A stretch of 64,000 bases of DNA from Monocercomonoides exilis PA203 (taxonomy: Eukaryota > Protista > Preaxostyla). The notes under the pieces were generated by a model that made no database searches, was not told the origin of the DNA, and saw nothing but the letters and a program-made list of their open reading frames with translations. Of the stretch, positions 23,301 to 52,535 are shown in pieces. The translations under genes were made by a program, and so were the position numbers. Every line of letters begins with the position of its first letter. Within the stretch, counting starts at the first letter, position 1. The stretch is from NCBI GenBank assembly GCA_001643675.2, contig LSRY02000044.1, positions 558,001 to 622,000 on the forward strand, read 5' to 3'.

Positions 23301-26300
23301 GAGCAGCACATGTGGGGAACGCTGTGAATGGGTATGGAGGATATGACTGGTGGTTTTGTGGGTTTGGGTATTTTCCATGCAAAACGATCACAAAGGTAGC
23401 AGAGAACAGATTCGGTTCGTCAAAGAAGAATATTGTGTTGGATTCAGGGTTTGAGTTGGGAGAAGTTGTTTCGATGGCAGGGTCATATGAATGGGAGGTG
23501 TATTGTGGGATTAACAAGACGAATGTGAATGTGAGAGTGCCTGGTGGAATGACATCTTCGTGTTTGATAAATGTTGAGAGTGCGAGTTCAATCAAGAACA
23601 TTGGGTTCCAAATTCCATTTTCGCTATCGAGTGCAACATCGCTCATTTGTTTGACCAGCTCATCACTCACACTCACAGACTGCTCAGTTGCTCATTCATC
23701 AGAGAGCACATCGAGTGTGGCCTTTGGATACAGCATTGTGAATGCGCAGAGTGGGAGTCTGAAAATGGAACGATTTGTGATGGAGGAAGGGCTGGCATTC
23801 AATGATCATTCAGCGATTGAATTTTGTGAAGGAATGACGAGTGTGATTTGTTCAGGATGCAATATCAGTGGGGTCAAAAGGAATGGTGGAGACGGAGGAT
23901 GGATGAAAGGAACAGTTGGAGGGAGTGGAACGTTGACAGTTGATGGATGCAATGTGAATGGGTGCAGTTGTGGTGGTGGAAATGGGGGAGGAATATATGT
24001 TGGATTGAAGGGAAATGGGAAAGTGGTTGTGAGTGGAACGAGTGTGATTGATGGGAATAAGGCAGAGAATAATGGAGGGAATGGAGGGAGAGGAGGAGGG
24101 ATGTTTGTATTGATGGAGAGTGGAGAGTGTGGATTGACAATTGGGAAGAATGTTCAGTTTTCGAAAGATCATGGGAATGTGGCAACATATGGGAAGGATG
24201 TGTTTGTTGATTGTGGAAGTGGTGTGTTTTTGGAGTCAAAAGTGAACACCAGCTCATTTTCATTTTTTGACACAAGCACCATTCCATCAGATGTGTTTCA
24301 GCTGAGTGGGAGTGAAAATGGGGAAGAAAGTGGAGTGATTCCACTGTTTGTGTATTTGTGCTCAATGGGAACAAAAGTGCTTGTTGATGGGAGTGGAGGA
24401 AATGGGAAGGACCACAACCATTGTGGATTTGATGCATTCAGGTGTTTAACAGTTGATTATTGTGCGAACTCGAGATTGAGTGAAAGTTCAAAAGAAATAG
24501 AGGTTGTCTCATCTTCGTCAATAACGAAGGAAATAACAGTACCATCATTTGGTGTGATAATTTCAGGCAGAATAACATCAGAGGAAGGAGAGAGGATGGG
24601 AGTGAATGTGAGTGATGGAGGATCAGCCACACAAGACTGGCTTGTTGGATGTTCGAGTTTACTGACAATGAGTCGACTTTCATTTGTTGTGAAAGGTCAG
24701 TTGAATTCAAGGAGAAGTGCATTCATTCATTCAACAACAACACTCAGTGTGACGAACTGTTCAATCTCATTTGAGAGTGGGGCATTAACAGATGGAAAGA
24801 TCAAATACAGCATCATTGAGATGGCAGGAGGGAATCTGATTGTTGATGGATTTGTGATGGAAAGTGGAGTGACACTGACAATGAATGGGAAATCGCCAAT
24901 CACAATGACAAGTGGAGCTCGATTGGAGATATTGAACAGCAGAATGAGTGGAGTGGAGGTGAATGTGGCAGGTGGAAGTGGAGGAGGGGGATGTTTGAAT
25001 GTTGGGATGGGGGTTAATGGGAATGTGAAAATTGAAGAATCTAATTTGTCCTCGACATGCTCAGGTGGAAGTGGAATGAAAGGGGGAGGGATGATGATAT
25101 CATTTGGAAGCAGAGGAACATTGAAAGTAAAAGGAGTGAAATTATCGGGATGTGCTGTGCCATCAGAGGATATTGAGAATGGAGGGAGAGGAATGGGAGG
25201 AGGGATGTTTGCTGAACTTGCCAATCAAATGGGAACGTTTTCATTGGAGAGCATGACATTTGAGGGATGCAACGCATGGAAAGGGAAGAATTTGTTTGTG
25301 GAAGCACAGGATTTGACAACTGTTATCAACAGCACATCAATTGGATTCGATCCAGAAATTGGAATTAAAGTTGCAGACTTGAATGAACTTTGTGGAAGAG
25401 AAAGAGATGAGGCAGAACTGATTGTTCCACTTGTTGTATTTCTTCGGACATTTTCATCACCAGCATATGTGAGTGGGAGAGAACAAGGAAGTGAATTCAA
25501 ATTGTGTGGATATGAAGATTACCCATGCAAAGGAATTGGGAATGTTGGAGAAGTTCAGTTTCCGAGTTCAGAGAGAACGATCAGACTGACAAGCACATTT
25601 TCATTTGATGAAGAAGTGAATTTGGATGAACAATCATATGAGATTGATTCGAGCAACAAAGATGTTGGAATAAAAATTGGAGGAACAGGAACAAAAACAC
25701 AAGAAGCACTTGTGATGAACAGTGTTTTATCAACATTGACAGGGATATTGTTTGAATTTGGAGGATCAATTGGGGAACGATCATCATTTGTTCATTCTTC
25801 AGGAGGGACATTGAGATTTGGTAATTGTGGGATAAAGATGGGAAATGGAGTGGATTCTGCGAATTATGTGTTTGTGAGTGCAAGTGGAGGGACATTATCC
25901 ATTTCAGGTTTCAGCATGACTTATGTGAGATTTGGAATGAATCCATTCATTGTTGTTGATGGGAGCGGAGAGGCTTCGATTGAGGATTCGTTGCTTGAGA
26001 GTGTGGAAACAACAAATATGAAGGGATTGATTGATTATTCATCACCATCGAGTTCATTGACGATCGGGAATGTGACAGCACAAGAGTGTGTGATGGGAGG
26101 GAAAGGACTGATATGGGATGATAATGGAAAGAAGCTGGGGATGAGGAATTGCACGATTATGAAAATGAGCAGTTTGGAGGGAAATGGGAGTGTTGTGAGT
26201 GGAGAAGTTGGGGATGGATGTGCTGTTGAGGTGAATGATGTTGTGATTGAAGAATGTGGAACATTGAAGGGATGTGGAGGAGGGATGAGTGTGATATTGA

Positions 26301-29300
26301 AGGGAACAGGAGAAATGCGTTTGGGGAAGAGTGGAGTGGTGACATCGTTTGAGAAATGTTCGGCTGGTGGTGAGGGATCAGTTGGGGGATATGGAGGAGG
26401 AGTGTTGTTGAGATGCGAGGAAGGAGGAAGGGACTTTGTGATGAGTGGATTGACATTTGGAAGAGGTGAGGGAGCAAACACAGCGGCACATGGAGGAAAC
26501 AATGTGTTTGTTGAAGGAACTAATTTGTATCAATTGGTGAATAATGTTTCATTTGACTTCTTGTTTGAGATTGAAGGTGAAGGATTCAACATAAAAGATC
26601 TTATGGGAGCAGAAAATGGGAATGAGTTGAAATTGATTCCAATTGTGGTGTTCTTTCGAGAGAAGCCGAGTGTTGGGTATGTGAATGGGGGAAATGGAGG
26701 GATGGACTATCATAAGTGCGGATATCCTGACTTTCCATGCTCCACATTGCCATATGCAGGAACAAGTGTTTTTGGCACATCGCCAGCAACACTGAAACTT
26801 GTTGATGGAAGTTCTATTTCTGATGAAATGATACTCAACACTCAAGAAATGAACATTGATGGAGATGTTGAAAAGGCAAATATTGGAATTAGCGAAGGAG
26901 GAGAAAATGAATTTTTGATAAAGAGCGAACGAGCAATATCGTTTTCATCATTGGCATTTTCGATAACAACATTTGCCGAATCAAGAAAGGAGTGTGTTTT
27001 TTTGTGCAGTGCAAGCACATTGAGATTTGAAGGATGCTCATTTGGAGCAGAATCAGAAAAGATTGGAATTGGATTGATTTGCGGGAAAGGAGGGAAAGTG
27101 GAGCTGGCGAAATGTGAATTTGGAGATTTTGCAATGACCAAATTAGGGATGGTGACTTTTGATGGAGCAGGGGTTGGAGGATTGATTGATGAGGTGATTG
27201 TGAGGAATGTGACAAGAGAATATGAGGGGAGAAGCTTATTTGAGCTGAGAAACGGAGGAGATGTTGAGATTAAGAACACGACGATGAATGAATCGAGCTT
27301 TGATGATGGAAATGAGATTGAGATTGGAGAAGGGATTAATGCGAAAATCTGGAACTGCACATTCAAATCGATTCAGAGAGTGAATGGGAATGGAGGGGTG
27401 TTGAATGGGAGACTGGGGAGTGGGAAGTGTGTGGATATTAACAAATGCGTGTTTGAGGAATGCAGATGCAATTCAGCGAGCGCAATTGGGGGAGGAATTG
27501 TTATGATTGTGGGAGATGGAGGAAAACTGTTGTTTGATGATAACAAGATGAATGGATGCACAGTTTCAGATAGGAGTGGAAAAGGAGGAGGGATGCATCT
27601 GACATTTGAAACAACGAATATTGACTATTCTATGAAGAATGATGATTTTGCGAACAATGTTGCACAAAAAGGAGAAGATGTGTATTTGGTGTGTGGATCA
27701 CCATGGACGATGCTTCTTCCAGCGTTGTGGGAAGGGACAGCCACAAGAGTCACAGCAGAAAATAGGATGTGGGTGCTTGAGTCATCTGAAGCAAGAAAAG
27801 AAGACTCGCTGATCAATTATCTGTTTCCAAGGTTGGGAACGGATTTGTTTGTAAGCAATGCTGGAAACGGATTATCAAGTTGTGGAGCGAAAGAAAATCC
27901 TTGCTCGTCTGTTGATATTGGGTTTGATCGGTTGAAGGATGAGATAGAGAGGATTATGCTTGTTGGTGCTGCTTCAGTGAGCAAGACGATCAACAGAGGT
28001 GGGAAAGGACTGACAATCAAAGGGAATGAAGTTACAAAAAAACTGGTTGTTGAAGAGGGAGGGAAATTTGAATTGACAGAAGGAGATGGGCAAACACATT
28101 TGACTTTGTCACTTCTTCAGATTTCGCTTCAATGCTCCTCCTCTGCAAGCGCAAGTGGTGATGAATCGATTGTGGAAGTGAGGATTGGGGAATGCTTCAT
28201 TTTGGATTGTTTGTTTTCAGGAGGAGAAGGGAATTCAAATGTGAATGAGTGTGGGAAGTGGATCGTGATTGGGAATGGAGGGGTCATTCGAATGGAGAGA
28301 ACAGAATTGAATGGGATAAAGTTCGAAGGATGTGGAGTTGCAAGATTTGGAGGAGGGAGTGTGATATTTGAGAACTGTTCATTTGATGGGATTGAGACTA
28401 GTGGAGGAGGAGTGATAGTGGGGCATAGTGGATCGGAAGTGACATTGAGGAACATGACAGGATTGGGGTGTGTTGTGGGAGCTGGATCGCTGATAACATC
28501 TAATGAAGGATCGAGTTTGAGGGTTGATGGAGGAAGCAGATTTGAGGATATTGAGACAGAAAGTGTGAGTGGAGGGTGTGTGAAGAGCGAGATGAAGCTG
28601 AATGATTTGCTTGAAATTGGATCAACATCCATATTGAGATGCTCGGCGAATGGAAATGGAGGAAGAGGAGGAGGAATATATCTGGATTTGAGTGACAATT
28701 GTGTGAATAACTTTTCGTTGACAACATTGACATTCAGAGAGAATGTTGCAGCTGAGGGAAGGGATTTATTCATTTCTTGCAAGAAACTGAATGAAACAGT
28801 GACGAAGGAGAGGTTTGGATTTGAATACAAATATGAAAATGGAGAAGGAGAAGGTCAGGCAGTTGATATGAAAGGGATTGACAGAGACTATTTTGCAGAG
28901 AGTGTTGATCTTGGGCTGTTTCTTGTTGAAATGAAGAGAATGGATGTGTGTGTGTCGAGAGAGGGTTATGACACATTGGGATGTGGGAGCGATGGATATC
29001 CATGTGAATCGATGTGGAGTGGAATAAGCCACATTGACATGAATGGAACGGAAGGAGAAAGGAAAGTGAAAGTGAGGGATGAAGGGACAATTGAAGATGT
29101 TTATTCATTCACAGATGCACTTGCGATTGATGGTTGTGTGAATGAGGGAGATGAAACAAAATACAAGCCTGTTCATTTTGAGGAGACAATCAAAGGGAAT
29201 TCTGCAACAACTTCATCTGTTATTTCATCAACTGTCTCACTCAGCTTGTTATCTTTGAAATTGCAGTTTCCAAGTCAATTTGAGCCAAATATGAATTCGT

Positions 29301-32300
29301 TGATCTCATCGGGTGGTGTTCTTCAACTTGAAAGCTGTTTATTTGAGATTCGATCATCAACAGATATTGTTCAATACTCATTGATATCCACAACCAGTGG
29401 AAGTTGCACATTGAAAGGATGCAGTTTAGCAGATTGTTCGTTTGTCAAATCTCCATTGGTAATGGCTTCTTCTGTTTTATTTGAAAACAGCAACTTTTCA
29501 AACATTGTGAATACTGGTAGAGGTGAAGGAGGCATTGCAAAAGTGACATTGAAAGGGAATGAAAAACTGGAAATAAAATCAACAAATGTGTCATCTTGTT
29601 CGCTTTCATCAAGAAATGGAAAAGGAGGATTCTTGTATTTGGATTGTCAAAACTGTTTAAATGAAAAGCCATTTCTTTTTGATGCTTTCATAACTTTAAA
29701 GAATAACAATGCAGCCATTGGAAAGAATATGTTCATTTTGGGAAAGGATTTTAATTCTTCTGTGACAAATGAGTCATTCAAGTTCGATTACTCATCAATG
29801 ATCAATGATAAAACTCTGTTTGTGGGGAGTGACAACTTTCATTCAAACAAGGATTTATTCATGTTCCTCGTTCCATACAGCTCATTTGAGATATTTATCT
29901 CATCAGGAGGATTTGATGTTGCACGTTGTGGAAGTGAGGAAGAGCCATGCTTCACAATGTGGAAAGGGATGGAAAACATGAAAGATGAAGAAGGAAATAA
30001 AACAATTCAGATTGAAGGATCAACCGTTATTCTAGATTCTTTCAATGTTTCCAATTATTTGATCAAAAAGGGTGTGAAGATGGGAGAGGAAGATACAAAA
30101 GCAAATTTGAAATTTGAAAAGACAATTGGAAATAAATTGGAATATTTCATGGTGAATAACGTTCATCTTGAATTGACAAATATCCAACTCCAATTAACAT
30201 CGGGATTCGACAACTCAGCCAAAACAATTATTTCAAACAAAGGAGGAGATTTGGTGATTACTGGATGTTCATTCCATTCAGAGGCTGGAGTGAACAATGG
30301 ATTTGATTGTGCATTTGTGGATGTGATTGGAGGCAGTGTGGAAGTGAATGATTTGTCATTGGAATCATGCAATGTTGGAAACAGTATTTTTGTCATTCAC
30401 GATGCTGGAATAACTTGCCATTTTGTGAATGTTCGAGTGGAATCGTTGAATGAAAGTGGAGGGTGCATTTTATCAATCAAGAAATCTGAACCAGGATTGA
30501 AGATAAATGAAGGAGTAAATGAAGAATGTGTAAATCTTGAGATTGATAATTCATCATTTTCAGGAGTAAAGAGAAGTGACAATGGACCAAGCATTTTGGA
30601 TTCAAAGAGTGAGAATAAGATTTGTTTTGTTGTAAAGGAGAGCAACATCACAGAAGATAAGGCAGAATATAGTGAAAAAGGAGGGGCGATATTCTTCACA
30701 TTGGGATCGTTTGGATCAATGAATATGATTGACTCAAAAATCACTAATTGCAATTGCAGTATTAGTGAAGGGAAAGGAGGAGGAGTGTATTTGGCCACAA
30801 AGGAAAGAGGAGATTTGAATTTTTCATTTGTGGGGATGAAATTCAGTGACAACGGTGCAAGTGTTGGAAAAGATGTTTTCATTCATTGCTTTAACATATC
30901 TTCGCAGATCAATGAAACCCAATTTCAATTTGATCTTCGAGAAGGTCATTATTCACGAATTAATGCAATATATGGAATGGATAGTTGCGATTATCCAAGC
31001 GATACTGATCTGATTGAATTTGTGACGATTCATCAGAGTGATACGATCATTGTGAACAGCTTGAATGGATCAAACGAAAAACAATGTGGAACGAACATTC
31101 TTCCTTGTTATTCAATTAATCATGGGCTGGTGCATCTGACTTCGGAATATGTGAGTCTGTTGCACATTGACACCAAGAGCGCAATTGAGGAAGAGATTAA
31201 TTTGAAGGAAATGAGTCTGAGTTCAAAGAGCAGAGAGATGTGTGAAGTTGAAGTGAAATCAAGCATTGAAAAAACAAGAGAGGCATTGATGGCAATAACA
31301 GGAACAGTCTCATTGTTGAGAGTGAATTTTGTGTTTGATTCAAATTTCATCTCTTCACATGAATCACTGATATCACCAGAGGGAGGAATTCTTGAGATAA
31401 TAAATTGCTCATTTGACTCAAAACAATCCAATGAAGAAGGAAATGCTGAATTTGCAATCATTCCATTTCACATAATAAACATGGAAAAAGGAGAATTACA
31501 ACTTGATGGATGCTCAATATCAAATCTCATTATTCATGAATCAGCATTGTTTCTTTCTTCTCAACTTCCATCAGTGATTTATTTGTTTGAGATCAGCAAT
31601 TCAACAATGAAAACATCTCTGATAGATATAAAGGAATGTGGACAATTAACAATTAAAGATTTCAAAACAGAAAATATCACAGTTGAAGGAAATGAAGAAT
31701 CATTGATATCTTGCTTTTCAATGAAAAAAACGATGCAGTTGGCAAATTGCACAATAGGTGGAGTCAGTTCAAACAATACAAAAGGGAAATTGATGAAATT
31801 GGAGAATTGTTTGGATGTGAAAATGGACAGTTGCATTTTTGATGGGAATTCAAAGGAAAGAAATGAAAAGAATCTGAATGCAGAAGAAGAGATGTGCAGA
31901 TGGGAAGGTTCTGTTGTGGATGTTGTGAAGAGTTCTGTGATGATGAAAGATACAACAATATCGAATTCACCAGAAGGTGGAATAGCAATGAGTGGAGGAA
32001 ATGTGATAATTAAGAAAGGAGAGTTTTTGAATAACAATCCATCAATTGAAGGATATCCATCATTGAGAAGAAACATCATCTGCTCAGACTCAGGGGCATT
32101 GAATGTGATGAGTTTGAAAGGAGGAGATGGAGTAAAAGATAGCTCCTCACTTTGGATGTTGAATGAAGGGTGCAATTTTGAAGGGATTGCTTCAGAGAGG
32201 GATACATCATTCTTTATTCCAGTTCTGGAAAGCGTTGAAGCAAAAGAAGAGACAAACAGAATGAAGCTGACATTCAAAGGAATGCTTCTTGTTCCATGTA

Positions 32301-33565
32301 ATTTGTCATTCTCAGTTGTAAAGAGAAAAGGAGATGAGAAAGAGATTGAAAAACATGATTTTGATTCAAATGGATTCTTATCGGAAAGAGAAGTTGAAGG
32401 AAGTGTGGGAAAAGATTTTATAAGCGGTTGTGGAGATGAAATAGAAGTGAGTGTGCACATTTTGTTTGGGAATGCAGAATCTCCATTATCAACAGATTCA
32501 TTCATTCTGAAGAACAAAAGTGAAACTGAACCAAAAGGAGATGAAATAATATCAAAAGGAGAGGATAAAATTGAATGGAGTTTATTTGCATTTATTGGCT
32601 GTGTTGTTGTTGTAATAATTCTATTGTTTGTAATTGTTGTGGTTGTTGTATTTCTGAGAAAGAAACTGAGGAAAGCCGAAAAGAGAGTTGAGAAAGAGAG
32701 ATTGGAAAATGAGCAGATTTTGGAGAAGATGGAGAGGAGAAGAAGGGAAAACAATGGAGAGAGCTTTGAGATGAGTGAAATGCCATCGACGTTGCTGGAA
32801 GGGATGACGAGCCAAATTCCACTTTTCATTGACAGCGATGAAGATCTTCCAGAGCCTCCACCAATGACTGATGGAGAGCTGAATGAGAATGATCTTCCAG
32901 ATTTGGAATCTCCATTGCTATTTACTGATGATGTGTCTATTTCTGAAGTTCATCAGAACAATTCATTCAATGTGATATCAGCAAAGAAGCCATTCAGAGA
33001 GAAGGAAAAAAAGAACCTGGAAACATTGCATTCAGTGATTCATTCCGTTCAAGGTGATTTCGCACTGGGAACGAGAGCAATGGATGTTTTTGATGGGAAG
33101 GAAGTGGTTTTGGCAGTGGCAGAGCTGTTTGAGCATTTGATTTCTGTTGGAGATGAAAGGGTGGTAATGATGGGGAGGCAACTGTGTCCGTATATGATCT
33201 TTGTTGAGGAAGGAAACAATGAAATATTTGTTTTGACAGAGGAATTGGAGGAAGAGAAGCAGAAGGAAGAAATGAAGCGATGGAAGGCTCCTGAAGAGAG
33301 AGATGAGGAAATAGAAAAGGCAGTTGTTTTTACACTTGGACTGATTCTCCATGAAGTGACAACAGGGGAAGTGCCTTTGAGCGAATGTGGTGCGGAGGAA
33401 GCGCAGGAGATGATAAGGGATGGGGTGCGACCGCTGACAGAAGGAATCGAAGGAGAAGATCTGGTTGAGCTGATGGAGAAGATGTGGGCAGATGAGCCAA
33501 AGGAAAGGCCCACATTGATAGAGGTGAAAGAATCGTTGAGAGAATTGATAGAAAACGATGTGTAG
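20381..33565 (+). CDS. 4,394-aa type I membrane receptor-like protein: signal peptide, 9 tandem beta-helix (pectin-lyase/Pmp-like) modules, one TM helix and a degenerate TKL-type kinase C-lobe
   Basis: Intronless ORF with a hydrophobic N-terminus. Nine modules open with V..G.D...CG....(P/R)C and mostly close with GGG(I/V/M)...GK(D/N)(V/L)F-type motifs. TM segment LFAFIGCVVVVIILLFVIVVVVVFL is followed by RKK. The tail RWKAPEE...VFTLGLILHEVTTGEVPL...RP...LMEKMWADEPKERPT matches kinase subdomains VIII-XI. Confidence 0.9.
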   Translation: MSIIALGIAALAAELCLQEGGWGAWGEEWKMGKEREKTEMVPAGAGKGESGIINGRKVNNIYVDARGARENEEENEKANGLKDLDEEKPNEEKETDEKENGRKREINNNSAHATRGRGRNGVFGAEGSEIEGSWRLKNSSATWSGLGLQTSGNRNVILAEKGSEVVICGCSVAVLDEISPFNFDGSCGLFANISLRSSSTSTLTSTEQIFPPLFSSKAVEGEICEKCHISVCSSHFSSFCVSSAPFISSHFVCLSQLEFFNISTNPSKTTYLAEGQIQTSFLMSGCTFLSVWDVYDGGIVPSLNSPSSSLSASNTSFVGCYRTQNVAVNGSEGNPSKPGRQQITDSGANSFTWCVWNGSKTTGSGTSYSDGASNGGAIYMYNKASGTLSVKFCSFNDCYAYYGGGAITAYEIRSITVDNTSFNACTAQNYEGGGIDIYSISLCVRISGCELQKCNAINRGGGLYLSTFQVSGSSCIGTDNGKGESACVFECSFTSCSVTKANGGGMFCQNVPAAFKMRSLQFISCSAVSYGGGFWFNPWQQAAPTKNIYCYFFFFHDCSCNASTPYGHDVYFRDADNIFSSYNPFYESYTTNSNDKRVCYAYYSGGWYYQHTEKKDWLKDKTIYVGVSGDDTSNLCGMSEAAPCKTVGHAVGSSMAQLSSAITLLSGRHVSENSTISVGEKTISVVGRGKTVSVIGTNSLSTSSTTLFSVSSGQLEVGHVEIDHNSMRSPSPSVFVVSVGSGTLSLEDVVIDSSTSGGSVISSSVFEVALKQLKMVDVEIKNMKMSQSLFAEPSSAGSSSGESVLANVTIRNVNRTEGDGVVMAKSVKGGETFVAWNTTIEGCECLNGDGGGIKVVLEDSTSKVLIGGSTSQSEGTTTFNQCKSSGYGGGVMLYLADNSFDFTITSVSFIGCSTTLGGKDVFVNGSRLVSGTITATKLNISRNVSINDELMGYDRNEEEMGIFPLNMFLEAFSGAAHVGNAVNGYGGYDWWFCGFGYFPCKTITKVAENRFGSSKKNIVLDSGFELGEVVSMAGSYEWEVYCGINKTNVNVRVPGGMTSSCLINVESASSIKNIGFQIPFSLSSATSLICLTSSSLTLTDCSVAHSSESTSSVAFGYSIVNAQSGSLKMERFVMEEGLAFNDHSAIEFCEGMTSVICSGCNISGVKRNGGDGGWMKGTVGGSGTLTVDGCNVNGCSCGGGNGGGIYVGLKGNGKVVVSGTSVIDGNKAENNGGNGGRGGGMFVLMESGECGLTIGKNVQFSKDHGNVATYGKDVFVDCGSGVFLESKVNTSSFSFFDTSTIPSDVFQLSGSENGEESGVIPLFVYLCSMGTKVLVDGSGGNGKDHNHCGFDAFRCLTVDYCANSRLSESSKEIEVVSSSSITKEITVPSFGVIISGRITSEEGERMGVNVSDGGSATQDWLVGCSSLLTMSRLSFVVKGQLNSRRSAFIHSTTTLSVTNCSISFESGALTDGKIKYSIIEMAGGNLIVDGFVMESGVTLTMNGKSPITMTSGARLEILNSRMSGVEVNVAGGSGGGGCLNVGMGVNGNVKIEESNLSSTCSGGSGMKGGGMMISFGSRGTLKVKGVKLSGCAVPSEDIENGGRGMGGGMFAELANQMGTFSLESMTFEGCNAWKGKNLFVEAQDLTTVINSTSIGFDPEIGIKVADLNELCGRERDEAELIVPLVVFLRTFSSPAYVSGREQGSEFKLCGYEDYPCKGIGNVGEVQFPSSERTIRLTSTFSFDEEVNLDEQSYEIDSSNKDVGIKIGGTGTKTQEALVMNSVLSTLTGILFEFGGSIGERSSFVHSSGGTLRFGNCGIKMGNGVDSANYVFVSASGGTLSISGFSMTYVRFGMNPFIVVDGSGEASIEDSLLESVETTNMKGLIDYSSPSSSLTIGNVTAQECVMGGKGLIWDDNGKKLGMRNCTIMKMSSLEGNGSVVSGEVGDGCAVEVNDVVIEECGTLKGCGGGMSVILKGTGEMRLGKSGVVTSFEKCSAGGEGSVGGYGGGVLLRCEEGGRDFVMSGLTFGRGEGANTAAHGGNNVFVEGTNLYQLVNNVSFDFLFEIEGEGFNIKDLMGAENGNELKLIPIVVFFREKPSVGYVNGGNGGMDYHKCGYPDFPCSTLPYAGTSVFGTSPATLKLVDGSSISDEMILNTQEMNIDGDVEKANIGISEGGENEFLIKSERAISFSSLAFSITTFAESRKECVFLCSASTLRFEGCSFGAESEKIGIGLICGKGGKVELAKCEFGDFAMTKLGMVTFDGAGVGGLIDEVIVRNVTREYEGRSLFELRNGGDVEIKNTTMNESSFDDGNEIEIGEGINAKIWNCTFKSIQRVNGNGGVLNGRLGSGKCVDINKCVFEECRCNSASAIGGGIVMIVGDGGKLLFDDNKMNGCTVSDRSGKGGGMHLTFETTNIDYSMKNDDFANNVAQKGEDVYLVCGSPWTMLLPALWEGTATRVTAENRMWVLESSEARKEDSLINYLFPRLGTDLFVSNAGNGLSSCGAKENPCSSVDIGFDRLKDEIERIMLVGAASVSKTINRGGKGLTIKGNEVTKKLVVEEGGKFELTEGDGQTHLTLSLLQISLQCSSSASASGDESIVEVRIGECFILDCLFSGGEGNSNVNECGKWIVIGNGGVIRMERTELNGIKFEGCGVARFGGGSVIFENCSFDGIETSGGGVIVGHSGSEVTLRNMTGLGCVVGAGSLITSNEGSSLRVDGGSRFEDIETESVSGGCVKSEMKLNDLLEIGSTSILRCSANGNGGRGGGIYLDLSDNCVNNFSLTTLTFRENVAAEGRDLFISCKKLNETVTKERFGFEYKYENGEGEGQAVDMKGIDRDYFAESVDLGLFLVEMKRMDVCVSREGYDTLGCGSDGYPCESMWSGISHIDMNGTEGERKVKVRDEGTIEDVYSFTDALAIDGCVNEGDETKYKPVHFEETIKGNSATTSSVISSTVSLSLLSLKLQFPSQFEPNMNSLISSGGVLQLESCLFEIRSSTDIVQYSLISTTSGSCTLKGCSLADCSFVKSPLVMASSVLFENSNFSNIVNTGRGEGGIAKVTLKGNEKLEIKSTNVSSCSLSSRNGKGGFLYLDCQNCLNEKPFLFDAFITLKNNNAAIGKNMFILGKDFNSSVTNESFKFDYSSMINDKTLFVGSDNFHSNKDLFMFLVPYSSFEIFISSGGFDVARCGSEEEPCFTMWKGMENMKDEEGNKTIQIEGSTVILDSFNVSNYLIKKGVKMGEEDTKANLKFEKTIGNKLEYFMVNNVHLELTNIQLQLTSGFDNSAKTIISNKGGDLVITGCSFHSEAGVNNGFDCAFVDVIGGSVEVNDLSLESCNVGNSIFVIHDAGITCHFVNVRVESLNESGGCILSIKKSEPGLKINEGVNEECVNLEIDNSSFSGVKRSDNGPSILDSKSENKICFVVKESNITEDKAEYSEKGGAIFFTLGSFGSMNMIDSKITNCNCSISEGKGGGVYLATKERGDLNFSFVGMKFSDNGASVGKDVFIHCFNISSQINETQFQFDLREGHYSRINAIYGMDSCDYPSDTDLIEFVTIHQSDTIIVNSLNGSNEKQCGTNILPCYSINHGLVHLTSEYVSLLHIDTKSAIEEEINLKEMSLSSKSREMCEVEVKSSIEKTREALMAITGTVSLLRVNFVFDSNFISSHESLISPEGGILEIINCSFDSKQSNEEGNAEFAIIPFHIINMEKGELQLDGCSISNLIIHESALFLSSQLPSVIYLFEISNSTMKTSLIDIKECGQLTIKDFKTENITVEGNEESLISCFSMKKTMQLANCTIGGVSSNNTKGKLMKLENCLDVKMDSCIFDGNSKERNEKNLNAEEEMCRWEGSVVDVVKSSVMMKDTTISNSPEGGIAMSGGNVIIKKGEFLNNNPSIEGYPSLRRNIICSDSGALNVMSLKGGDGVKDSSSLWMLNEGCNFEGIASERDTSFFIPVLESVEAKEETNRMKLTFKGMLLVPCNLSFSVVKRKGDEKEIEKHDFDSNGFLSEREVEGSVGKDFISGCGDEIEVSVHILFGNAESPLSTDSFILKNKSETEPKGDEIISKGEDKIEWSLFAFIGCVVVVIILLFVIVVVVVFLRKKLRKAEKRVEKERLENEQILEKMERRRRENNGESFEMSEMPSTLLEGMTSQIPLFIDSDEDLPEPPPMTDGELNENDLPDLESPLLFTDDVSISEVHQNNSFNVISAKKPFREKEKKNLETLHSVIHSVQGDFALGTRAMDVFDGKEVVLAVAELFEHLISVGDERVVMMGRQLCPYMIFVEEGNNEIFVLTEELEEEKQKEEMKRWKAPEERDEEIEKAVVFTLGLILHEVTTGEVPLSECGAEEAQEMIRDGVRPLTEGIEGEDLVELMEKMWADEPKERPTLIEVKESLRELIENDV

Positions 33566-34132: not shown

Positions 34133-34394
34133 ATATGGGTGATTATTTTCGAAATCATAACTTTTTTGGGGTATCAATTTTTCAAACGTTGTTAATCATT
34201 GGGAAGAGACATTGTGCTTATATTGTTAAATTATCACAACTGCTTTCAAAACAAATGATAAAGCTGAAATAAAGATGATAATGTTTCTAATTGGTCTTTT
34301 CCCTATGCAGTGATCATTAATTCATATTCAAAGGAAATTCTTGAACCGTAAATTTTTAATGAAAAAATATGACTTCAAAAATAATCACCCATAT
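34133..34394. mobile_element. MITE (family A, ATATGGGTGATT ends)
   Basis: Ends ATATGGGTGATTATTTTCGAAATCATA and TATGACTTCAAAAATAATCACCCATAT. The interior is homologous to 52271-52535. It sits at a TA inside the second family-B copy. Confidence 0.75.
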
Positions 34395-34396
34395 CA

Positions 34397-35888
34397 TTAA
34401 TTGGGCATGTTTTGTGTCTCCTCTTCCATTAATATTGCGTAGGCTCTTGTTACCACTCTCTCTGTTCGTGTGCATATATTTCTTGATTTCTTGACAGTTG
34501 CATGGGAACATGATCGCTTCGAATCCTCTTCCTGATCCACACCAATATTTTCCTTATTATGCAGTTTATCTTCAACTTCTTTGACTTCTTCATTTTCCTT
34601 ATTGCTATCCTTCTCCTCTCCAACTGTCTGCGATGATTGCGACTCTTCGATGTCCATGTCAATGCTGTGTTCTGTGAGAGAGGGAAGCTGTTGTGTTGGA
34701 ATGGAACAATTTGTCTGTAAAGATAGTTGTGGAGAATTGAAAGTTTGTGGTTGCGCCAGCGATAATCCAATTGAATTTGAAGGTTGAAGGCTATGAAAAT
34801 ACTGAGAGGAGGGCTGATGATTAAACGTCTGAGGTTGTTGTTGATACAGTTGTGAAGGATGTGGTCGAGGTGAAAGGACAATATCATGTTGAACAGGAAA
34901 CACGTTTATTGCAGATTGGATTGGAGTCTGGATGTTTGCGAAAGCAGATCCTTGAATTATTTGAGCACTCCAAGGTTGTATTTGAGATCCTGTTTGTGGG
35001 AATGGTTCGTGTTCTGTCAGAACCTGGGCCATCGCTTGAGCAGTGTTTGTTTTGAAGAAAGAATTAGTTGATGTGTGAGCTGTGGGAGACAATCGAGCAA
35101 AGTGTGCTTCCATAACCTCCGGAACTCCAGCGGCAAGGAGAGCAGACAAAGTTGCATGCTTTATTGTGTAAGGCCAAAACGAGGGGTTGATTCCTGCCTG
35201 CTTCAATGCCTCCTTTGCAAGTTTACGAATTCCATCCTTTGACATTCTTGATCCATTTCTCGTGTTTTTAATGAACGTGTCTCTACCTGGATACAAAACT
35301 TTAATTTGGTTCCAAAGTTCCAATATTGTTCGCACTGGACAAACATCTGACTGGATCTCCTTCAGTTTAGGGACTGTGATGAACGATCTTGCGAGTCTTT
35401 TTTACAATTGGACTGAAAGATGAATTGCATTCTCAGAGATTATCGAATCGTTCATTGAAATGCTCGCCAGTTCTGAAAACCTGCATGCAGTGAATAATAT
35501 ACACAGAGTTATTGATTTCAATGTCAGAGAGAATACGCTCAAAGTCTCGTTGGGCCACAGAGTTCTGAGATAATTGTAAAGGACCTGTGGATCTCATATT
35601 TCCTCGTACGGAGCTCTTTTCTTTTCCTTTCTCATGATAGAGCGAAAGAATGTCTTTATTATCGGAACTGTTCCAAAATCGAAAGAGAAAGCACTTCTTG
35701 TGAATAGCGACACTGCGGACCTTGTTTGCTTTAAGCACTGAGGAGGAAAACCCTCATTATCTAAGCATATGAAAGTGTCCAAGCACTTCCTCACCCAAAT
35801 CACAGGATCTGACGGTAGCTCCCCCATATTCCCCTTGATCCAAGATTTTGCAAAATGTGCGAATCCAAATGTGTATGTTGTCCATGTT
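34397..35888 (-). pseudogene. Tyrosine recombinase of DIRS/Crypton type, with two nonsense codons and a truncated 5' end
   Basis: One frame: TWTTYTFGFAHF...PYEEI*DP...FTACRFSEL (box I Arg)...VQL*KR...VCPVRTI...WPYTIKHATLSALLAAGV...ARLS..AHT..SFF (degenerate box II, catalytic Tyr apparently replaced by Phe). Stops at 35594-35596 (TGA) and 35402-35404 (TAA). Coding is cut at the TIR at 35889. Confidence 0.8.
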
Positions 35889-36535
35889 AGAGATATGGTA
35901 TACCCGCTATGGATCCATCTCGATGAGGTCAATCAATATTATCGATTCATGAATATCTGGTAGTTATTATCATCTTGTATAATAAGCTGGAATAGGCAAT
36001 GATAATGAGATAGAGATAGAGGGTTATTGATGAGACTCTTAGGGGTTTCTCATGATTAGATAATCAGTGATGTTCTATAAAGATGGAGTAATTGAAAGGT
36101 GTAATCGAGATATATCCATAGCGGGTATACCATATCTCCAAGGAGAAGAATTAGCTAAAAGATTAACTGGAAGTGTTCAAGTTGGTAAATTAGTGGTGAA
36201 ATTGTGTGAAAATTGATGTTTTCGTTGATGAAATACATGAGTTGAACATGTGTCGAACGTTGATGAAATAGCAAATAAAAATAATTGATTTTGTTTTTTT
36301 GTTTTATCGTAAATGGGTCGGAAGAAGATATTCTCGACTGTGGAAGAAGCGAAAGAGGCTCAACAGAAACAAATTAAACAGTTTCAGGAAAAACGTAAAG
36401 AAGAAATTAAGTATTACAACGAACATGTATCTGAAAAACAGAAGAAAATGATTAAGATATTGAGGAGAAAGGTTATCGAAAGTGATGAGCTGTTAGATGA
36501 GTTGATGGAAAAAGTTAGTGGTTATTGCCTGCACA
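35889..36535 (+). repeat. Left TIR (647 bp)
   Basis: Reverse complement of 39647-40293. It appears identical over 35917-36522, with mismatches only at the outer ~28 bp and inner ~13 bp. Confidence 0.9.
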
Positions 36536-36594
36536 GGGTGGATAGGTTAAGCTGGACAGAAAATGCAAATGATGCTGTGTTGTGGAAATATTGA
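36313..36594 (+). CDS. Small charged helical protein (93 aa) starting in the left TIR
   Basis: MGRKKIFSTVEEAKEAQQKQ...; the first 70 aa are identical to the right-TIR copy. Start context TCGTAAATG. Confidence 0.6.
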   Translation: MGRKKIFSTVEEAKEAQQKQIKQFQEKRKEEIKYYNEHVSEKQKKMIKILRRKVIESDELLDELMEKVSGYCLHRVDRLSWTENANDAVLWKY

Positions 36595-36839
36595 GTAAAA
36601 TCTCCATGCTGGAAGTGTGGACAGGTGGACAGGACTGGGCAGGATAATTTAAATTCTTCAAAGAATGTGTGCAAACGGGCAAACTGAGCAAATTGGGCAA
36701 AATAAAATTTATGTTTTAATTAACTGTTTCCCTTCAAAGTTCGACATCAACCTCAACATCATCTTCCTCGTAAATGTTCGTTTCAAAAATAAATCTGTTT
36801 CATTTTAAAAAAAAATTTGTTTTTTTTAATTTTAATAAA

Positions 36840-39182
36840 ATGACAAACCGCCAAGCAGACACTGACAACGTAATCCAACAACTAATTGATTCAATTTCAA
36901 CAGAACAGCAAACGCTGGGAGAACGAATGAAAGATCACATCGTTGACTTGTTCGACTACAAGAAATACTCTGACAAGAAGCAGGTTCAACGACACACTGG
37001 AACAGCTGTTGATATCAGCAAATGTGAGGATCTCTGTGTCGTTGATGTTGACATTAACAAATCCCTTCAAGCTGAACAAACGAAAACCATCAGGAATTCC
37101 ATTCTCGACAAACTCCCCCGAAACGTCGGACTTGTGCAAACAGCTCATGGTGGTCTTCATATTTATTGTGAGCTGTGTGGTTATCCCCTCAAATGTTCGT
37201 CACAAACCAAAGTGTTCACGAGTCCAGAATACGATATCGACATTTTTGCAGGTATTGGGGATGGAAAACAGAGACTTGTTGTTCAAGCTGACTCTTCATA
37301 CAGAGAGATGAAAGATGGCAAGAGAATCATCACCAAATTCACTCCACTTAACAATCACAGAGAGCTCACAGATCTTTCATCACTCGAAAGTGTTCTTGAC
37401 GTATTCGGTATTGATCTCAAAACAGAGAATACATCAGCGACAATGGCGGCTGAACCACATAATTTTCTCACACAAGATGGTGTTGTTGATATGTCTCCAA
37501 CTGTCGCTCTTGCTTTTGTCAATAAAATCAAAGATGTTGAAATACATAAAGACACAGGTTCTCTGTCACTTGATTCTGAGTTAACTCTTTTACCGTTATT
37601 TGCAGCTCTCAACTCACTCGTTAACATTAACGGTTTCGAAAACGAATCAATTGATTTTCTTTACAATCAAATCAGAGAGACAGCTGCTCTTACAGCAAAT
37701 GCAATTACTCACTTTGAAGAGAAAAGAAACAGATACAGAGACAACAAGTCACATCCATTTGTTCTTCAAAAGATTGTCAAGAGATGGAATCCAACATATT
37801 AAAACGATGTTATCATTCCACTCCTCAGAAAAGAGAATGAGCAAAAGGAAGAACACCCACGAGAGATTACTGTTCATGAAATTGATCTCAACTCATCGTT
37901 CTCGTTCTCTGAAATCAGGGATAAAGCTTGTCGAAAACAATACTCCACACTGTCGGAAGTCGCCGAAGATCTCACAAAAGTTCTGAGGTTTGTTGAAGCA
38001 AGGATGGAATTCATTGTGAAAGAGTTTGACATTCACACCTCTTGTTATTCAATTACATTCAAGATAAAATCATCAATGAACGAACTGTTCAAAACAATAA
38101 AACTGTGGCATGATGACAAAAAGACTCTCACAGTTGAGACAGCTTTCGAACAATACTCTCATGTTCTATCGATTGATGGGGTGAAGTTCTTCTCAGATAA
38201 CCCTCGAATATTCTCTTTGTTCCATGGGTTCAAATACCAAATGGCAAACGAACAAAATGACGAAATCATCAAGCCATTCCTTGATTTCACACGAGAAGTT
38301 ATTGCCAACAACAACGAAGAACTCTATCAATACATCCTCTGTTGGATTTCATCAATTGTTCAAAATCCTGGTAGAAAAGCAGAAACATCACTTGTTCTCA
38401 AAGGCTTGCAAGGTATTGGAAAGAATGTCTGGACAAATGTTTTTGCTGAACTGTTGGCAGGATATTCATGTCCGAATGTCACAGAGATTGCAAAACTGAC
38501 AGGACAGTTCAACTCCATCGTCGAAGGGAAAATGCTGATTGTACTGAACGAATTGAAAAATGTTGGAGATGATCGAACAGCTAACTTTGATGCATTGAAG
38601 AGTATAATCACAGATTCAACAATCAGAATCAATGAGAAGAATCAGCCAAGAAGAACAGCTGAGAATGCAGCTAACTTCATATTTGTGACAAATCACACAT
38701 ACCCAGTAAAAATTGAGATTGGTGACAGAAGATATGTTGTTTGTGATTGCAACTCAAAATATAAGAACAGTCTCACATTCTTCAAAAATTTCACAAGCTC
38801 TTTCGACAATGAATTCTATGAACAACTTCTCTGTTATTTCCTCAGCAAAGATCTCACCAATTTCTCCACAAGGGCTATTCCAACAACGGAGGCAAAAGAA
38901 GATATCATTGCAGCATCACTCTCTGTCATCGATGTGTTCTGTCAGGAGCATTACAATAAACTCAAAGAAGGGTGGAGATGTTCTGATGCACTTTGTTGCA
39001 GACTAGTTGAATACAAGAACGATCGCTCATTCCAACTAGCAATTAAAGACAGATGTGAGCACAAGAAAATGGGTGGAAGAGGAAATTAAGTGTGGTGTTA
39101 TAAACTTAAACCAGAGTATGAACAACTCCTCAAACAACGAGAAGATGAAGATGACATTGACTGTTCTGTGGAAATTAACTAA
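36840..39182 (+). pseudogene. Primase-polymerase (AEP/PrimPol) fused to a D5-like/DUF5906-type SF3 helicase, ~780 aa, with two in-frame TAA codons
   Basis: AEP motifs VVDVD, QTAHGGLHIY and DIDIF. Helicase Walker A GLQGIGKN, Walker B LIVLNE, motif C FIFVTN and Arg finger DRRY. ORFs 36774-37802 and 38004-39089 share one frame, and reading continues through TAA at 37800 and 39087 to TAA at 39180-39182. An alternative in-frame ATG lies at 36774. Confidence 0.85.
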
Positions 39183-39617
39183 ACATATTCGTTTTTTTGG
39201 AAATCATTAATACAAAAATTATACAACTTGTGTGCCACATGTTATATACCACCAACGATACCATGTGGCAATGTGGCAGAATGACAACACAATCGAAAAA
39301 CAAAATACACCTCAAAATCATGGTAAATTAGGGGTAAATTGCTCATGTTGGCAGAAATGGCATGCTGGCAGCTCTTTTCAGATGAAATAAAACTGTTTTG
39401 GACACCTGGATACCTGGACACGCTTCCAGCACGGAGATTATAGTTAATATATCCCTTCTGCTGAGTCTTCGATATTGCCACAATCCGGTATCCAGTATAC
39501 CGATTTACTACTTTTCCGAGTAAAAATATAGATGTTGGCAATCAACCCGAACATCAACGTGTCCACTGTTCTTAACAATCAACAGTACAACAAACGTGTT
39601 CCCCTTGTTATGTTTCA

Positions 39618-39869
39618 TCAATTAACACATTTATCCCAATCAAGCTTGTGCAGACAATGACCACTAACTTTTTCCATCAACTCATCTAACAGCTCATCAC
39701 TTTCGATAACCTTTCTCCTCAATATCTTAATCATTTTCTTCTGTTTTTCAGATACATGTTCGTTGTAATACTTAATTTCTTCTTTACGTTTTTCCTGAAA
39801 CTGTTTAATTTGTTTCTGTTGAGCCTCTTTCGCTTCTTCCACAGTCGAGAATATCTTCTTCCGACCCAT
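39618..39869 (-). CDS. Second copy of the TIR-encoded small protein (83 aa)
   Basis: Identical N-terminal 70 aa to 36313-36594; the C-terminus differs. Confidence 0.6.
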   Translation of the reverse strand: MGRKKIFSTVEEAKEAQQKQIKQFQEKRKEEIKYYNEHVSEKQKKMIKILRRKVIESDELLDELMEKVSGHCLHKLDWDKCVN

Positions 39870-40293
39870 TTACGATAAAACAAAAAAACAAAATCAATTA
39901 TTTTTATTTGCTATTTCATCAACGTTCGACACATGTTCAACTCATGTATTTCATCAACGAAAACATCAATTTTCACACAATTTCACCACTAATTTACCAA
40001 CTTGAACACTTCCAGTTAATCTTTTAGCTAATTCTTCTCCTTGGAGATATGGTATACCCGCTATGGATATATCTCGATTACACCTTTCAATTACTCCATC
40101 TTTATAGAACATCACTGATTATCTAATCATGAGAAACCCCTAAGAGTCTCATCAATAACCCTCTATCTCTATCTCATTATCATTGCCTATTCCAGCTTAT
40201 TATACAAGATGATAATAACTACCAGATATTCATGAATCGATAATATTGATTGACCTCATCGAGATTGATCCATAGCTGATATATCATATTTCT
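39647..40293 (-). repeat. Right TIR (647 bp)
   Basis: Reverse complement of 35889-36535. Confidence 0.9.
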
Positions 40294-40394
40294 TCCATTT
40301 AACTTTTCAGTTATCATTAATTTATATGCAATTGATATTTTTGAACAAAAAAATTAAAATGAAAAAATATTATTTCAAAAATAATCATCCATAT
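40290..40394. mobile_element. 3' fragment of a family A MITE
   Basis: Aligns to the last ~100 bp of 34133-34394 and 52271-52535, ending TTCAAAAATAATCATCCATAT. Confidence 0.65.
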
Positions 40395-40585
40395 GTAGAA
40401 TTTTCTTTTTCAAATTTTTATCTTTAAACAAAGCCGTTTTTGTTTCTTTGTTCTGTGTTTCTTCATTTTTAGACTCTTTTCTTTCATCCTTGTCTTTTTT
40501 TTCATTCATTCATAAATTCTTCATCAATTATTTATTTTCAGAATTGGTAAAACGTTTGTGTTATTGTATTTATAATGATTGACCG

Positions 40586-41446
40586 TTATTTTGGAAGCTT
40601 GGCTAACAGTTCGCTCCACTGATGTGACAGTACTCCGCTCTTCGCAAATGAAGAGTTGATTGTTGAAGGCAACAAAGAAGTTTGCAAAGCTTGTGAAAGA
40701 ACATCAGCCAGTGCTTTACATCGCAAAATAACAGTAGTAGAAGAAGAAGCTTTATAATTGGCATTTATTGTTTTTTTAAAAACAGCAAATACGCCACGAT
40801 CCAACGGCTGTGCGATATGAGTGGTGTGGTGCACGAAGGTGACGAAATCCATTGAAGAATCGGCATACTTCTTCCATAAGTCAGGCTGCGCTCTCGAAGA
40901 ATGCTAATCAAGAAAATAAAGGCAATGTTCTTCACTCTTCCTCAACATTACTATTCAATATTTGATACCTGAATGCAACACTTCTTCATCATATTTGAGG
41001 AATAGCGCTTCAGTCATCCAGCCTTCATTTTCACCCCAAACATCCAACTGCGAACTCAAAACAAGGAGCAGTTCATCAGGTAATTAGTGGCAAGTCCACA
41101 GAACGACGCTTTTAAGAGAGAAGCCATCAGCTGCTGCTGCAACGACGAGAGTTGCTTTAAGCATATTCATCGGTGTTTTGGAGAAACCGGCTGGCATGTC
41201 GGAAGGATGGAAAACAAGAGTAGAGAAAGAATCAGAGAGTCAAAGAGAAGATTCATCAATATTGAAGATGAGAGAGTTAGAAAAATGATGTTGATTATGA
41301 AGGTTTTGTAGAAGAGTGAAAAATGGAAGAAGAGTTTGTTGATTTGATGCAGAGAGTCGTTGGATGTCGACATTTCGAGGATGAGAAGCTTTAAGTTCGG
41401 GGTTCCCTTTGGTGTATTGATAGGGATATGCTTTAGAAATGTTCAT
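40586..41446 (-). pseudogene. pogo/CENP-B-like DDE_1 transposase remnant
   Basis: Motifs in the expected order across broken frames: LIFNIDESS, NEGWMTEALF, FLD*HSSR and HTTHIAQPLDRGVFAVFK. Confidence 0.8.
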
Positions 41447-41903
41447 TTCTTTATCTTCTTTGTCGAAGTCATCTTTTTCCTTTCATTGATAACAGCATTC
41501 ATCAAAATTTTTAAAAAATAGACAAACACAACAAATAAAAAATTTCAATGAATAAATTTACTCATAAGCTCAGCGTTGTGAATTATTCCAGTTTCAAATT
41601 CTATTTTCAGCACTTCAAATATGGTTTCATTTTCTTCCTGCCTAAATAATACGGGTCTTCCATATTTTCCTGCCTTTTTTCTTTTTTTGCACATGCCACA
41701 GCACTTACAATTACCGAGCGAGAAAACTCCTTCATGTTAGCATCATCAGCAACAAGAGCTTCTCCATTAGCAATAATTGTTGTATCACGTTCTTTTCGAT
41801 ATATAATTCAACGATAGTGGAAATATTTCATTATATCTCTCAATTCCATCAATCCACTTTCTTTTCTTTGTTTCGCTATCCTTATAATAAAAAAAAAAAT
41901 TTA

Positions 41904-42151
41904 ATATGGGTAATTCTTTTTGAAAAGTCGCGAATGTTTAATTTTCAAATAAATCAAAATATTTTAATTTTGCTCAAATTTTTGTTTGCACCCACGAAAC
42001 TTCACCAAAGTGGAAGAAATAATTTGACAATGCTATTTAACGCATTCCTGTGAAGTGACATGAGTCGGAACCGAAATATGATCAAGATATGAAATTTTTG
42101 ATTTATTTGAAAATTAAACATTTGCGACTATTCAAAATGAATTACCCATAT
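41904..42151 (+). mobile_element. MITE (family C, 248 bp, ~55-bp TIRs)
   Basis: ATATGGGTAATTCTTTTTGAAAAGTCGCGAATGTTTAATTTTCAAATAAATCAAAA is inverted at the other end (...TTTGCGACTATTCAAAATGAATTACCCATAT). Confidence 0.8.
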
Positions 42152-42876: not shown

Positions 42877-43590
42877 TTATTATTCGATTTTGGTAATCTT
42901 CTTATTCAAAATTAAAAAAATTGAGTATTTTTTTTCAAAAAATTATTTGTGAAAAATTGGTTTTTTGCTGAGTATCAAAAAGTGATAAAAATATAATATT
43001 TTTTCATTATTAATAAAAAGGATGAGAAAACGAACCTCTAACATTACTATTTGTGAAAAAAACATAAAAATTTCAAATTTTTTAGAAAAAAATCTTCTTC
43101 ATAGAAATTGGATTATTTTCGAATCATTCCACCTCACATTGTTAGATTAAACATTATTCAATCAAGAAAAGTTTTTTGCATCATTATTATAAACTGATTA
43201 CAAATATTTTTCTCAACTGAATAAATTTGTAAATGCACTTTAAAAATTCTTCATTAGTTTTTTATTGATCTTCTGAATATATTTCGAAAAAAAAACTTTT
43301 CTTGATTGAATTATGCTTAATCTAACAATGTGAGGTGGAATGATTCGAAAATAATCCAATTTCTATGAAGAAGATTTTTTTCTAAAAAATTTGAAATTTT
43401 TATGTTTTTTTCACAAATAGTAATGTTAGAGGTTCGTTTTCTCATCCTTTTTATTAATAATGAAAAAATATTATATTTTTATCACTTTTTGATACTCAGC
43501 AAAAAACCAATTTTTCACAAATAATTTTTTGAAAAAAAATACTCAATTTTTTTAATTTTGAATAAGAAGATTACCAAAATCGAATAATAA
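42877..43590. repeat. Fold-back inverted repeat with 301-bp arms and a 112-bp spacer
   Basis: 42877-43177 is the reverse complement of 43290-43590, with two visible mismatches near the inner edge. Confidence 0.9.
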
Positions 43591-43610: not shown

Positions 43611-43858
43611 AAATGTGTGATTATTTTTGAAAAGTCGCAAATGTTTAATTTTCAAATAAATCAAAAAATTCATATTTTGCTCAGATTACTGTTTCTTCTT
43701 ACGAATATACTTAAGAATGTTTGAAATAGCATTATCAAAATATTGATTCCATGTTTGTGAAGTTTGGTTGATGTTAACAAAAATTTGAGCAAAATATGAA
43801 ATTTTTGATTTATTTGAAAAATAAACATTTGCGACTTTTCATAAAGAATTACCCAAAT
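43611..43858 (-). mobile_element. MITE family C, second copy in opposite orientation
   Basis: Same 248-bp length and TIRs as 41904-42151, with a homologous interior on the minus strand. Confidence 0.75.
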
Positions 43859-52270: not shown

Positions 52271-52535
52271 ATATGGGCGATTATTTTTGAAATCATAATT
52301 TTTTTCGGGGTGCTATTTTTTTTTTAACGTTGTTTGTAATTGTAAAGAGCTTTTGAATTCAAATGCAAAATCTGTCGCAACTGTTTCAAGAATTAATGAA
52401 TCAGCTGAAATAATGAAGAAAATGTCTTTATTCATCCTTTTCACTTTTCTGTGATCATTATTTTATGTTTATGGGAAATTTTTGAACCGAAATTTTTGAA
52501 TGAAAAAATTTGATTTCAAAAATAAACACCCATAT
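52271..52535. mobile_element. MITE family A copy
   Basis: ATATGGGCGATTATTTTTGAAATCA...TGATTTCAAAAATAAACACCCATAT; collinear with 34133-34394. Confidence 0.75.

Follow-up and report, generated by a model that had tools for sequence, protein, structure and literature searches.

A multi-copy AEP-SF3 replicase element with long terminal inverted repeats in the Monocercomonoides exilis genome and its relation to metamonad Mavericks

A stretch of 64,000 nucleotides of the Monocercomonoides exilis PA203 genome (assembly GCA_001643675.2, contig LSRY02000044.1, positions 558,001 to 622,000; hereafter the window, in whose own coordinates all features are given) was found to contain, at 35889-40293, a real, multi-copy and undescribed element that lies within the Polinton network. 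It carries one large gene for an archaeo-eukaryotic primase (AEP) joined to a superfamily 3 (SF3) helicase, enclosed by 647-bp terminal inverted repeats (TIRs). On balance we favour, by a modest preference, the interpretation that the locus is one dead chromosomal copy among many of a replicase module that split from metamonad Maverick/Polinton-like viruses and spread as a capsid-less and integrase-less family. The observations in hand are the anatomy of the element, the domains and motifs of its gene, its decayed paralogs, a second copy with the left-arm open reading frame (ORF), and the pairing of a helicase with a small ORF in Maverick-type contigs. Descent of the module from a virus and capture of the module by a virus both stand as directions of transfer. 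No published description of a nuclear, TIR-bound AEP-SF3 family was found in the literature searched, which lay outside Repbase and most subscription papers.

A replicase gene between long terminal inverted repeats

Ungapped pairing of the left TIR (35889-36535) with the right TIR (39647-40293), neither of which has a strand, covered 647 bp with 7 mismatches (98.9% identity), and the element termini are AG...CT. This bore out the initial annotation, made from the sequence before the present analysis, of a 4.4-kb unit with indel-free arms and AG...CT ends. Five of the mismatches fall in the outer 28 bp and two in the inner 13 bp, and the 606-bp core between them (35917-36522) is identical in both arms. 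Mavericks/Polintons also have AG...CT ends, and their target-site duplication is 6 bp.

The boundaries were examined with contigs that stem from four runs on a single sample, which may be the very source of the window. One contig of the repeat on the left flank, 705 bp long, agrees with 35470-35888 and then diverges from the window, which backs the boundary at 35888/35889; in two of the runs, a joint leads in from another locus at 35889. The right junction is bridged by an exact 307-bp contig (40236-40542). Among the contigs listed from these runs, none spanned the entire 4.4-kb unit. A tyrosine-recombinase fragment borders the element on the left and half a miniature inverted-repeat transposable element (MITE) on the right; because these flanks derive from two different repeats, there is no simple empty site. 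No clean target duplication was found at the element ends, where the 6-mers at the called ends differ and the best agreement was 6 of 8 bases. An ATAT target duplication was considered and rejected, as the AGAG outside the ATAT belongs to the element (the flank contig stops at 35888 and the joint enters at 35889).

Three features went beyond the initial annotation: an outer inverted-repeat unit of about 250 bp in each TIR, a small ORF in each arm, and a relic repeat of 71% identity further inward. The left fold-back unit (35889-36141, no strand) holds a 35-bp inverted repeat (94%) around a loop of ~180 nt, and its folding stood far from that of shuffled sequences (z -7.3, reached by 0 of 200). 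The right unit (40041-40293, no strand), with 5 substitutions at its outer end, folds more weakly (z -2.3, reached by 6 of 200). These units are predicted to serve as an origin or telomere. In run X2, a joint from 40289 to 36150 placed the variant of the terminal repeat that is found at the right outer end at the inner position, apparently in another copy, a hint that the 250-bp unit can invert. Inward of the TIRs, 36584-36659 and 39381-39454 (no strand) retain an inverted similarity of 71% (54 of 76 positions of the left copy identical to 39454-39381, E 4e-9), which is the remnant of a longer, older inverted repeat.

The claim that only one gene lies between the TIR ends did not hold, since a small basic ORF sits inside each TIR. 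The left-arm ORF (36313-36594, plus strand) encodes 93 aa with a GRKK motif and extends out of the TIR, and the right-arm ORF (39618-39869, minus strand) encodes 83 aa and is convergent with the replicase gene. Searches with the small ORF gave Pfam and PHROG hits below cutoff only and Atlas scores <0.9. Its product probably binds the TIR.

The reported lack of protein-primed DNA polymerase B (pPolB), integrase and capsid genes was supported by a search with 17 ORFs of Maverick-type contigs, which returned no pPolB, ATPase, integrase-like or capsid-like match in the 64-kb window. The sole matches were to the helicase and the AEP, inside the replicase gene. For a protein-primed PolB there is, moreover, no room between the TIRs.

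Domains and decay of the replicase gene

The replicase pseudogene, encoding an AEP, a helical bundle and an SF3 helicase, occupies 36840-39182 on the plus strand and comprises 780 codons plus stop. The initial annotation of a central gene of ~780 codons with an AEP stood, and its D5-like helicase is instead, by sequence similarity, of the NrS-1/DUF5906 type: the SF3 ATPase core (38334-38777, plus strand, residues 499-646) matches the NrS-1 helicase at E 1.3e-16 and the helicase region matches DUF5906 at E 6e-22. The N-terminal region reached no Pfam or PHROG family at cutoff. A structure model of paralog P0002 was confident over this region, and its top five PDB matches in Foldseek were the pRN1 ORF904 and NrS-1 primase-polymerases (E 1e-4 to 8e-4), by which the modelled N-terminal domain is an AEP of the pRN1/NrS-1 type. 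The helicase assignment rests on sequence because the helicase core was modelled with low confidence (predicted local distance difference test, pLDDT, <50 for 486-686). The gene contains the DxD, His and third acidic motifs of AEPs, together with Walker A and B, motif C and the arginine finger of the helicase, and both sets of motifs are conserved across 35 aligned relatives. The enzymatic activity of the element itself is a prediction. NrS-1-type enzymes combine priming with polymerisation (PMC8718748).

Two nonsense codons interrupt the gene on the plus strand, TAA at codon 321 (37800-37802), for which four sources record the truncated product of 320 aa, and TAA at codon 750 (39087-39089). 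Both are nonsense mutations, because Tyr and Gln occupy these positions in the paralogs that cover them and a long host ORF stays open without read-through, and the proposal that this copy is inactivated was accordingly upheld. A stop-to-Gln genetic code was considered unlikely, given 31 CAR codons in the gene and a neighbouring host ORF of 4411 codons with no internal TAA or TAG. Among the differences listed in the gene (40 of about 1000 rows), 14 were near-fixed, 5 synonymous and 9 not, a number that is compatible with neutral decay and too small for a test.

Copies and relatives

The replicase protein was matched by 24 other M. exilis gene models, spread over 15 or more further contigs, so that the family is dispersed over at least 16 contigs in this genome; the count is approximate, as the searches were limited and in two pairs the members may be the same gene or parts of it. 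Nine aligned copies each lie 3.9-10.4% off the column majority in a star-like pattern of decay, and paralog P0019 is an open frame over its full length. Two records with consecutive accessions on one 978,991-bp contig, P0006 (replicase) and P0059 (small ORF), represent a second copy, in which the left-arm ORF likewise neighbours the replicase. P0059 is 84% identical to the left-arm ORF, and the upstream arm is not unique to the window, because P0059 ends in residues that are encoded solely by left-arm inner sequence. These records agree with the earlier view of a multi-copy mobile unit. In the four runs the summed contig depth of the gene came to 18, 21, 34 and 99 times the depth of exact single-copy contigs, which is not a copy number, and that of the outer TIR was 1.5-1.8 times that of the gene in three of the four runs and 1.05 times in the fourth.

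Outside M. exilis, two clusters, one of 198 members from Trichomonas vaginalis and one of 35 metagenomic members, are among the relatives at 43-44% identity. The Streblomastix relatives reach 34-36%, and a profile search found many further full-length relatives within its best 150. The T. vaginalis relatives are likely a younger sister family; the gene ids of these homologs were not found in the supplements available for PMC12289875. A scan of viral_contigs with exact patterns, an insensitive method, gave no relative, and a metagenome scan reduced 191 pattern matches to 2 loci, both distant. Overlapping GTDB sweeps of 401, 401, 401 and 135 genomes added solely L018 and L019, the latter a 2405-bp contig with almost nothing besides the replicase gene. 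Separately, the metagenome contig L001 (1-2880) has as its sole gene an 854-aa PriCT-2 + DUF5906 primase-helicase, carries a weak 57-nt inverted repeat (72%) close to its ends, and is possibly another minimal replicon.

Association with Mavericks

The initial annotation held that the element matches none of the known groups. This was not sustained, as helicase, AEP and small ORF all have Maverick-type relatives and AEP-SF3 modules have been proposed in a preprint. One GTDB bin contained eight matching contigs. A related AEP-helicase adjoins a Pox A32 ATPase in L013, a related helicase adjoins pPolB (Pfam E 5e-32) in L014, and another lies in L016 near an ORF that is capsid-like by eye (no Pfam hit). 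In both L014 and L016 a GRK-motif small ORF runs convergently towards the helicase, the arrangement also seen in the right arm of the element. The left-arm ORF resembles these small ORFs, with scores of 69-74 that were equalled in 0-3 of 2000 shuffles and ranked top among 286 ORFs. Additionally, L004 has a domain, fused behind a pPolB-like C-terminus, to which the AEP region is 29% identical (E 5e-20); judged by its motifs, the part in front of this domain would be a pPolB C-terminus, next to an integrase-like ORF.

L004 (1-1710) is itself an apparent polymerase-primase fusion (pPolB C-terminus, AEP and helical domain) in a Maverick-like contig. Maverick-type or related replicase contigs were also seen in bacterial bins, namely C26, C52, C85, C92, C105, C112 and C123 of G001, C69 of G002 and C136 of G504, and are probably eukaryotic contamination.

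In a quick helicase tree of 138 rows, the element family and the T. vaginalis and Streblomastix proteins fall together in one branch of 73 rows (support 96); the tree is unrooted and comprises rows with a helicase core, less near-duplicate cluster members. The Maverick link is one to cousins, because the Maverick-embedded helicases fall outside this 73-row clade.

Comparison with known systems

The element has the long TIRs of Polintons/Mavericks and lacks their protein-primed PolB, rve/DDE integrase and 6-bp target duplication. Set beside Polinton-like viruses, it has the AEP-SF3 or PolA-SF3 replicase of some members and lacks the major capsid protein (MCP) and packaging ATPase. Metamonad Mavericks/Polintons (TvMav1-3 and the Streblomastix group) resemble it in their 500-700-bp TIRs, related SF3 helicases, AEP domain and small GRK-motif ORF, but are 10-28 kb long with pPolB, rve integrase, ATPase and capsid genes, all of which it lacks (PMC12289875, PMC10120064).

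Mobile AEP-SF3 insertion sequences or modules have been proposed from single examples (bioRxiv 10.64898/2026.10.13.758929), and the present element likewise consists of an AEP-SF3 gene bracketed by repeats and free of integration or morphogenesis genes. Those examples, however, are single cases within or beside viruses, with the Bodo saltans virus copies described there without flanking repeats, whereas here there is a nuclear family of more than 20 records with 647-bp TIRs, a nested fold-back unit and a small ORF per arm. Despite their different replicase, transpovirons are by analogy the closest functional counterpart, being small, capsid-less, TIR-bearing replicons that arose from Polinton-like viruses by loss of the structural module; all of them carry a pPolB-SF1 helicase fusion and are parasites of giant viruses (PMC11161782), in contrast to an AEP-SF3 element in a nuclear genome. 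In entomopoxvirus-associated Polinton-like viruses, a primase-helicase adjoins inverted repeats proposed as an origin, and a mobile helicase-TIR model has been put forward, but these end modules occur with a tyrosine recombinase, morphogenesis genes and a D5-type AEP (PMC11296320). The single-protein replicases pRN1 ORF904 and that of phage NrS-1 share the order of AEP, helical bundle and SF3 helicase and the conserved catalytic motifs, while belonging to a prokaryotic plasmid and phage and aligning structurally at 13-18% identity. The available parts of PMC13215967 and PMC6431247 contained nothing closer.

Proposed mechanism and origin

Replication of a live copy may have proceeded as follows. 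A hexameric helicase would load at the terminal fold-back unit and unwind it, the small basic protein probably binding the TIR. The AEP would then prime de novo and extend by strand displacement, as the pRN1 and NrS-1 enzymes can, and because of this no pPolB or terminal protein would be needed. On the displaced strand the 647-bp TIRs could pair into a panhandle, recreating the origin and rendering the arms identical. Because the element has no integrase, linear copies would enter chromosomes through repair at breaks or by the integrase of a helper Maverick.

The arms are far more alike than gene decay predicts and so were made alike late: with a private divergence of 4.2% in the gene, neutral decay would give ~21 arm mismatches, and none was seen in 606 bp. 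Unless assembly polishing did it, the arms were homogenised after decay of the gene began, by in-place gene conversion or by re-replication in trans.

Several observations weigh against a split-off viral module. Uneven repeat polishing in long-read assemblies could inflate the arm identity (PMC8767320). The fixed TIR-gene-TIR layout is seen at one locus and half-seen at one more. The similarity of the small ORF to those of L014 and L016 is short, lysine/glutamate-rich and modest, and in the quick tree three Maverick-embedded helicases lie outside the 73-row branch. The host has metamonad-type capsid genes, which indicate a possible parent. One cluster of close relatives is found on 10.7-11.6-kb contigs and the Streblomastix relatives on 15.8- and 56.9-kb contigs. 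Neither a free form of the element nor its RNA or activity was observed.

A bolder interpretation, which we hold tentatively and below the viral one, is that the family belongs to a hitherto undescribed class of selfish replicons of eukaryotes that is widespread among metamonads and for which one self-priming AEP-SF3 enzyme and fold-back TIRs suffice. With similar reserve, such a replicon might copy itself into DNA breaks with neither nuclease nor integrase, and might donate replicases to Mavericks and not descend from them. The 198 near-identical T. vaginalis records and the many gut-metagenome contigs of ~3 kb bear on this interpretation, and a new class would be indicated if the paralogs in M. 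exilis and T. vaginalis prove to be stand-alone TIR units.

A free-moving primase-helicase module has been hypothesised as the cause of replicase swapping among Polintons, Polinton-like viruses and virophages, hitherto from isolated cases. The M. exilis family is nuclear, its ends are defined, and its host is grown in culture and has been assembled from long reads; with a likely younger sister family in T. vaginalis besides, it opens this idea to direct testing. If true, it would constitute a route of DNA mobility with no transposase, pPolB or HUH nuclease, and would put a name to part of the unclassified repeats of M. exilis, reported as 35% (PMC8767320).

Alternative explanations

The alternative that survives best is that the element is an internal-deletion derivative of a resident Maverick/Polinton-like virus, whose parent would have the same TIRs together with capsid, ATPase and integrase genes and whose short form would have been amplified in trans as a defective passenger. 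We consider this rather unlikely, short of improbable. The AG...CT ends and the helicase with a convergent small ORF in Maverick-type contigs are in its favour. So are the agreement of TIR length with TvMav1 (500-700 bp) and the primase-domain gene in 91.8% of TvMav3 copies (PMC12289875), as well as the 6 M. exilis MCP hits in the metamonad column of Tables S1/S4 of Bellas 2023, shared with Streblomastix and trichomonad Mavericks (PMC10120064). However, M. exilis has about four replicase records for each of these capsid hits, the interval between the TIRs holds no remnant of other viral genes, the element ends lack the 6-bp target duplication, and "Maverick" appears in 0 of the 15 names listed of the 198-member T. 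vaginalis cluster. Additionally, 23 of the 29 full-length metagenomic relatives tallied are on contigs of <=3.7 kb, a weak point as such contigs are short anyway.

It is improbable that the element is a composite DNA transposon, with the two 250-bp terminal units as MITE-like ends on which a host DDE transposase acts and the replicase as mere cargo. The terminal unit is like the ~250-bp MITEs of the window in size and in its ATATGG...CCATAT end motif, and composite-like Kolobok elements reportedly exist (PMC9587614). Nevertheless, unit and MITEs share no sequence similarity beyond chance words, and the depth of the unit tracks the gene (1.05-1.8x), far under that of the MITEs. The AGAG outside the ATAT is part of the element by the same flank contig and joint that fix its left end, and arm identity continues for 400 bp beyond the unit, ORF included.

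Still less probable is that all copies are the integrated remains of a plasmid or virus satellite that existed outside the chromosomes, with fold-back telomeres and never any transposition step, and whose integrations were accidents of DNA repair. The strong terminal fold-back, the star-like decay of the aligned copies, the absence of an integrase and of a clean target duplication between two different flanking repeats, and the 40289 to 36150 joint, which hints at a possibly inverted terminal unit in other copies, all suit such an origin. On the other side, no site where many molecules end was reported, although contigs are unable to show ends, relatives with readable gene context sit in Maverick-type contigs, and matches in the plasmid database are just 24-30% identical over the helicase region. 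This explanation moreover overlaps the favoured one of a split-off viral module except at the helper step.

An assembly artefact or one-off local inverted duplication, named in the initial annotation as a possible refutation, is very unlikely: 606 bp are perfectly identical beside a decayed gene and no contig spans the entire unit, but the arms differ at 7 edge positions, an exact contig crosses the right junction, further inward there is an older inverted repeat of 71%, and the left-arm ORF is present in another copy.

Neighbouring features

The left-flank sequence at 34397-35888 (minus strand) comes from a multi-copy tyrosine-recombinase element (Phage_integrase E 0.005) that, by reading of its sequence, is apparently DIRS-like; it is a fragment, which the replicase element truncates at 35888. 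On the right, 40294-40394 is a half copy of a ~250-bp MITE. Full MITEs of this size, from two related high-copy families with ATATGGG...CCCATAT ends, lie at 34133-34394, 41906-42151, 43613-43858 and 52271-52535, and a 4-bp target duplication is suggested by a joint that skips 34133-34390 and has 4 ambiguous letters. A 714-bp near-palindrome at 42877-43590, with 301-bp arms at 99% and a 112-bp spacer, adjoins one of them, and 40500-41700 (minus strand) holds a decayed remnant of a DDE_1 (pogo-like) transposase. The 4411-codon open frame at 20330-33565 (plus strand) encodes a repetitive membrane protein with a C-terminal kinase-like domain. Further upstream are a GC-rich island at 17000-20000 (53-63% vs ~40%) with strong G skew and overlapping long frames, and an open frame of more than 3180 codons at 2-9541 (minus strand) that matches UTP20.

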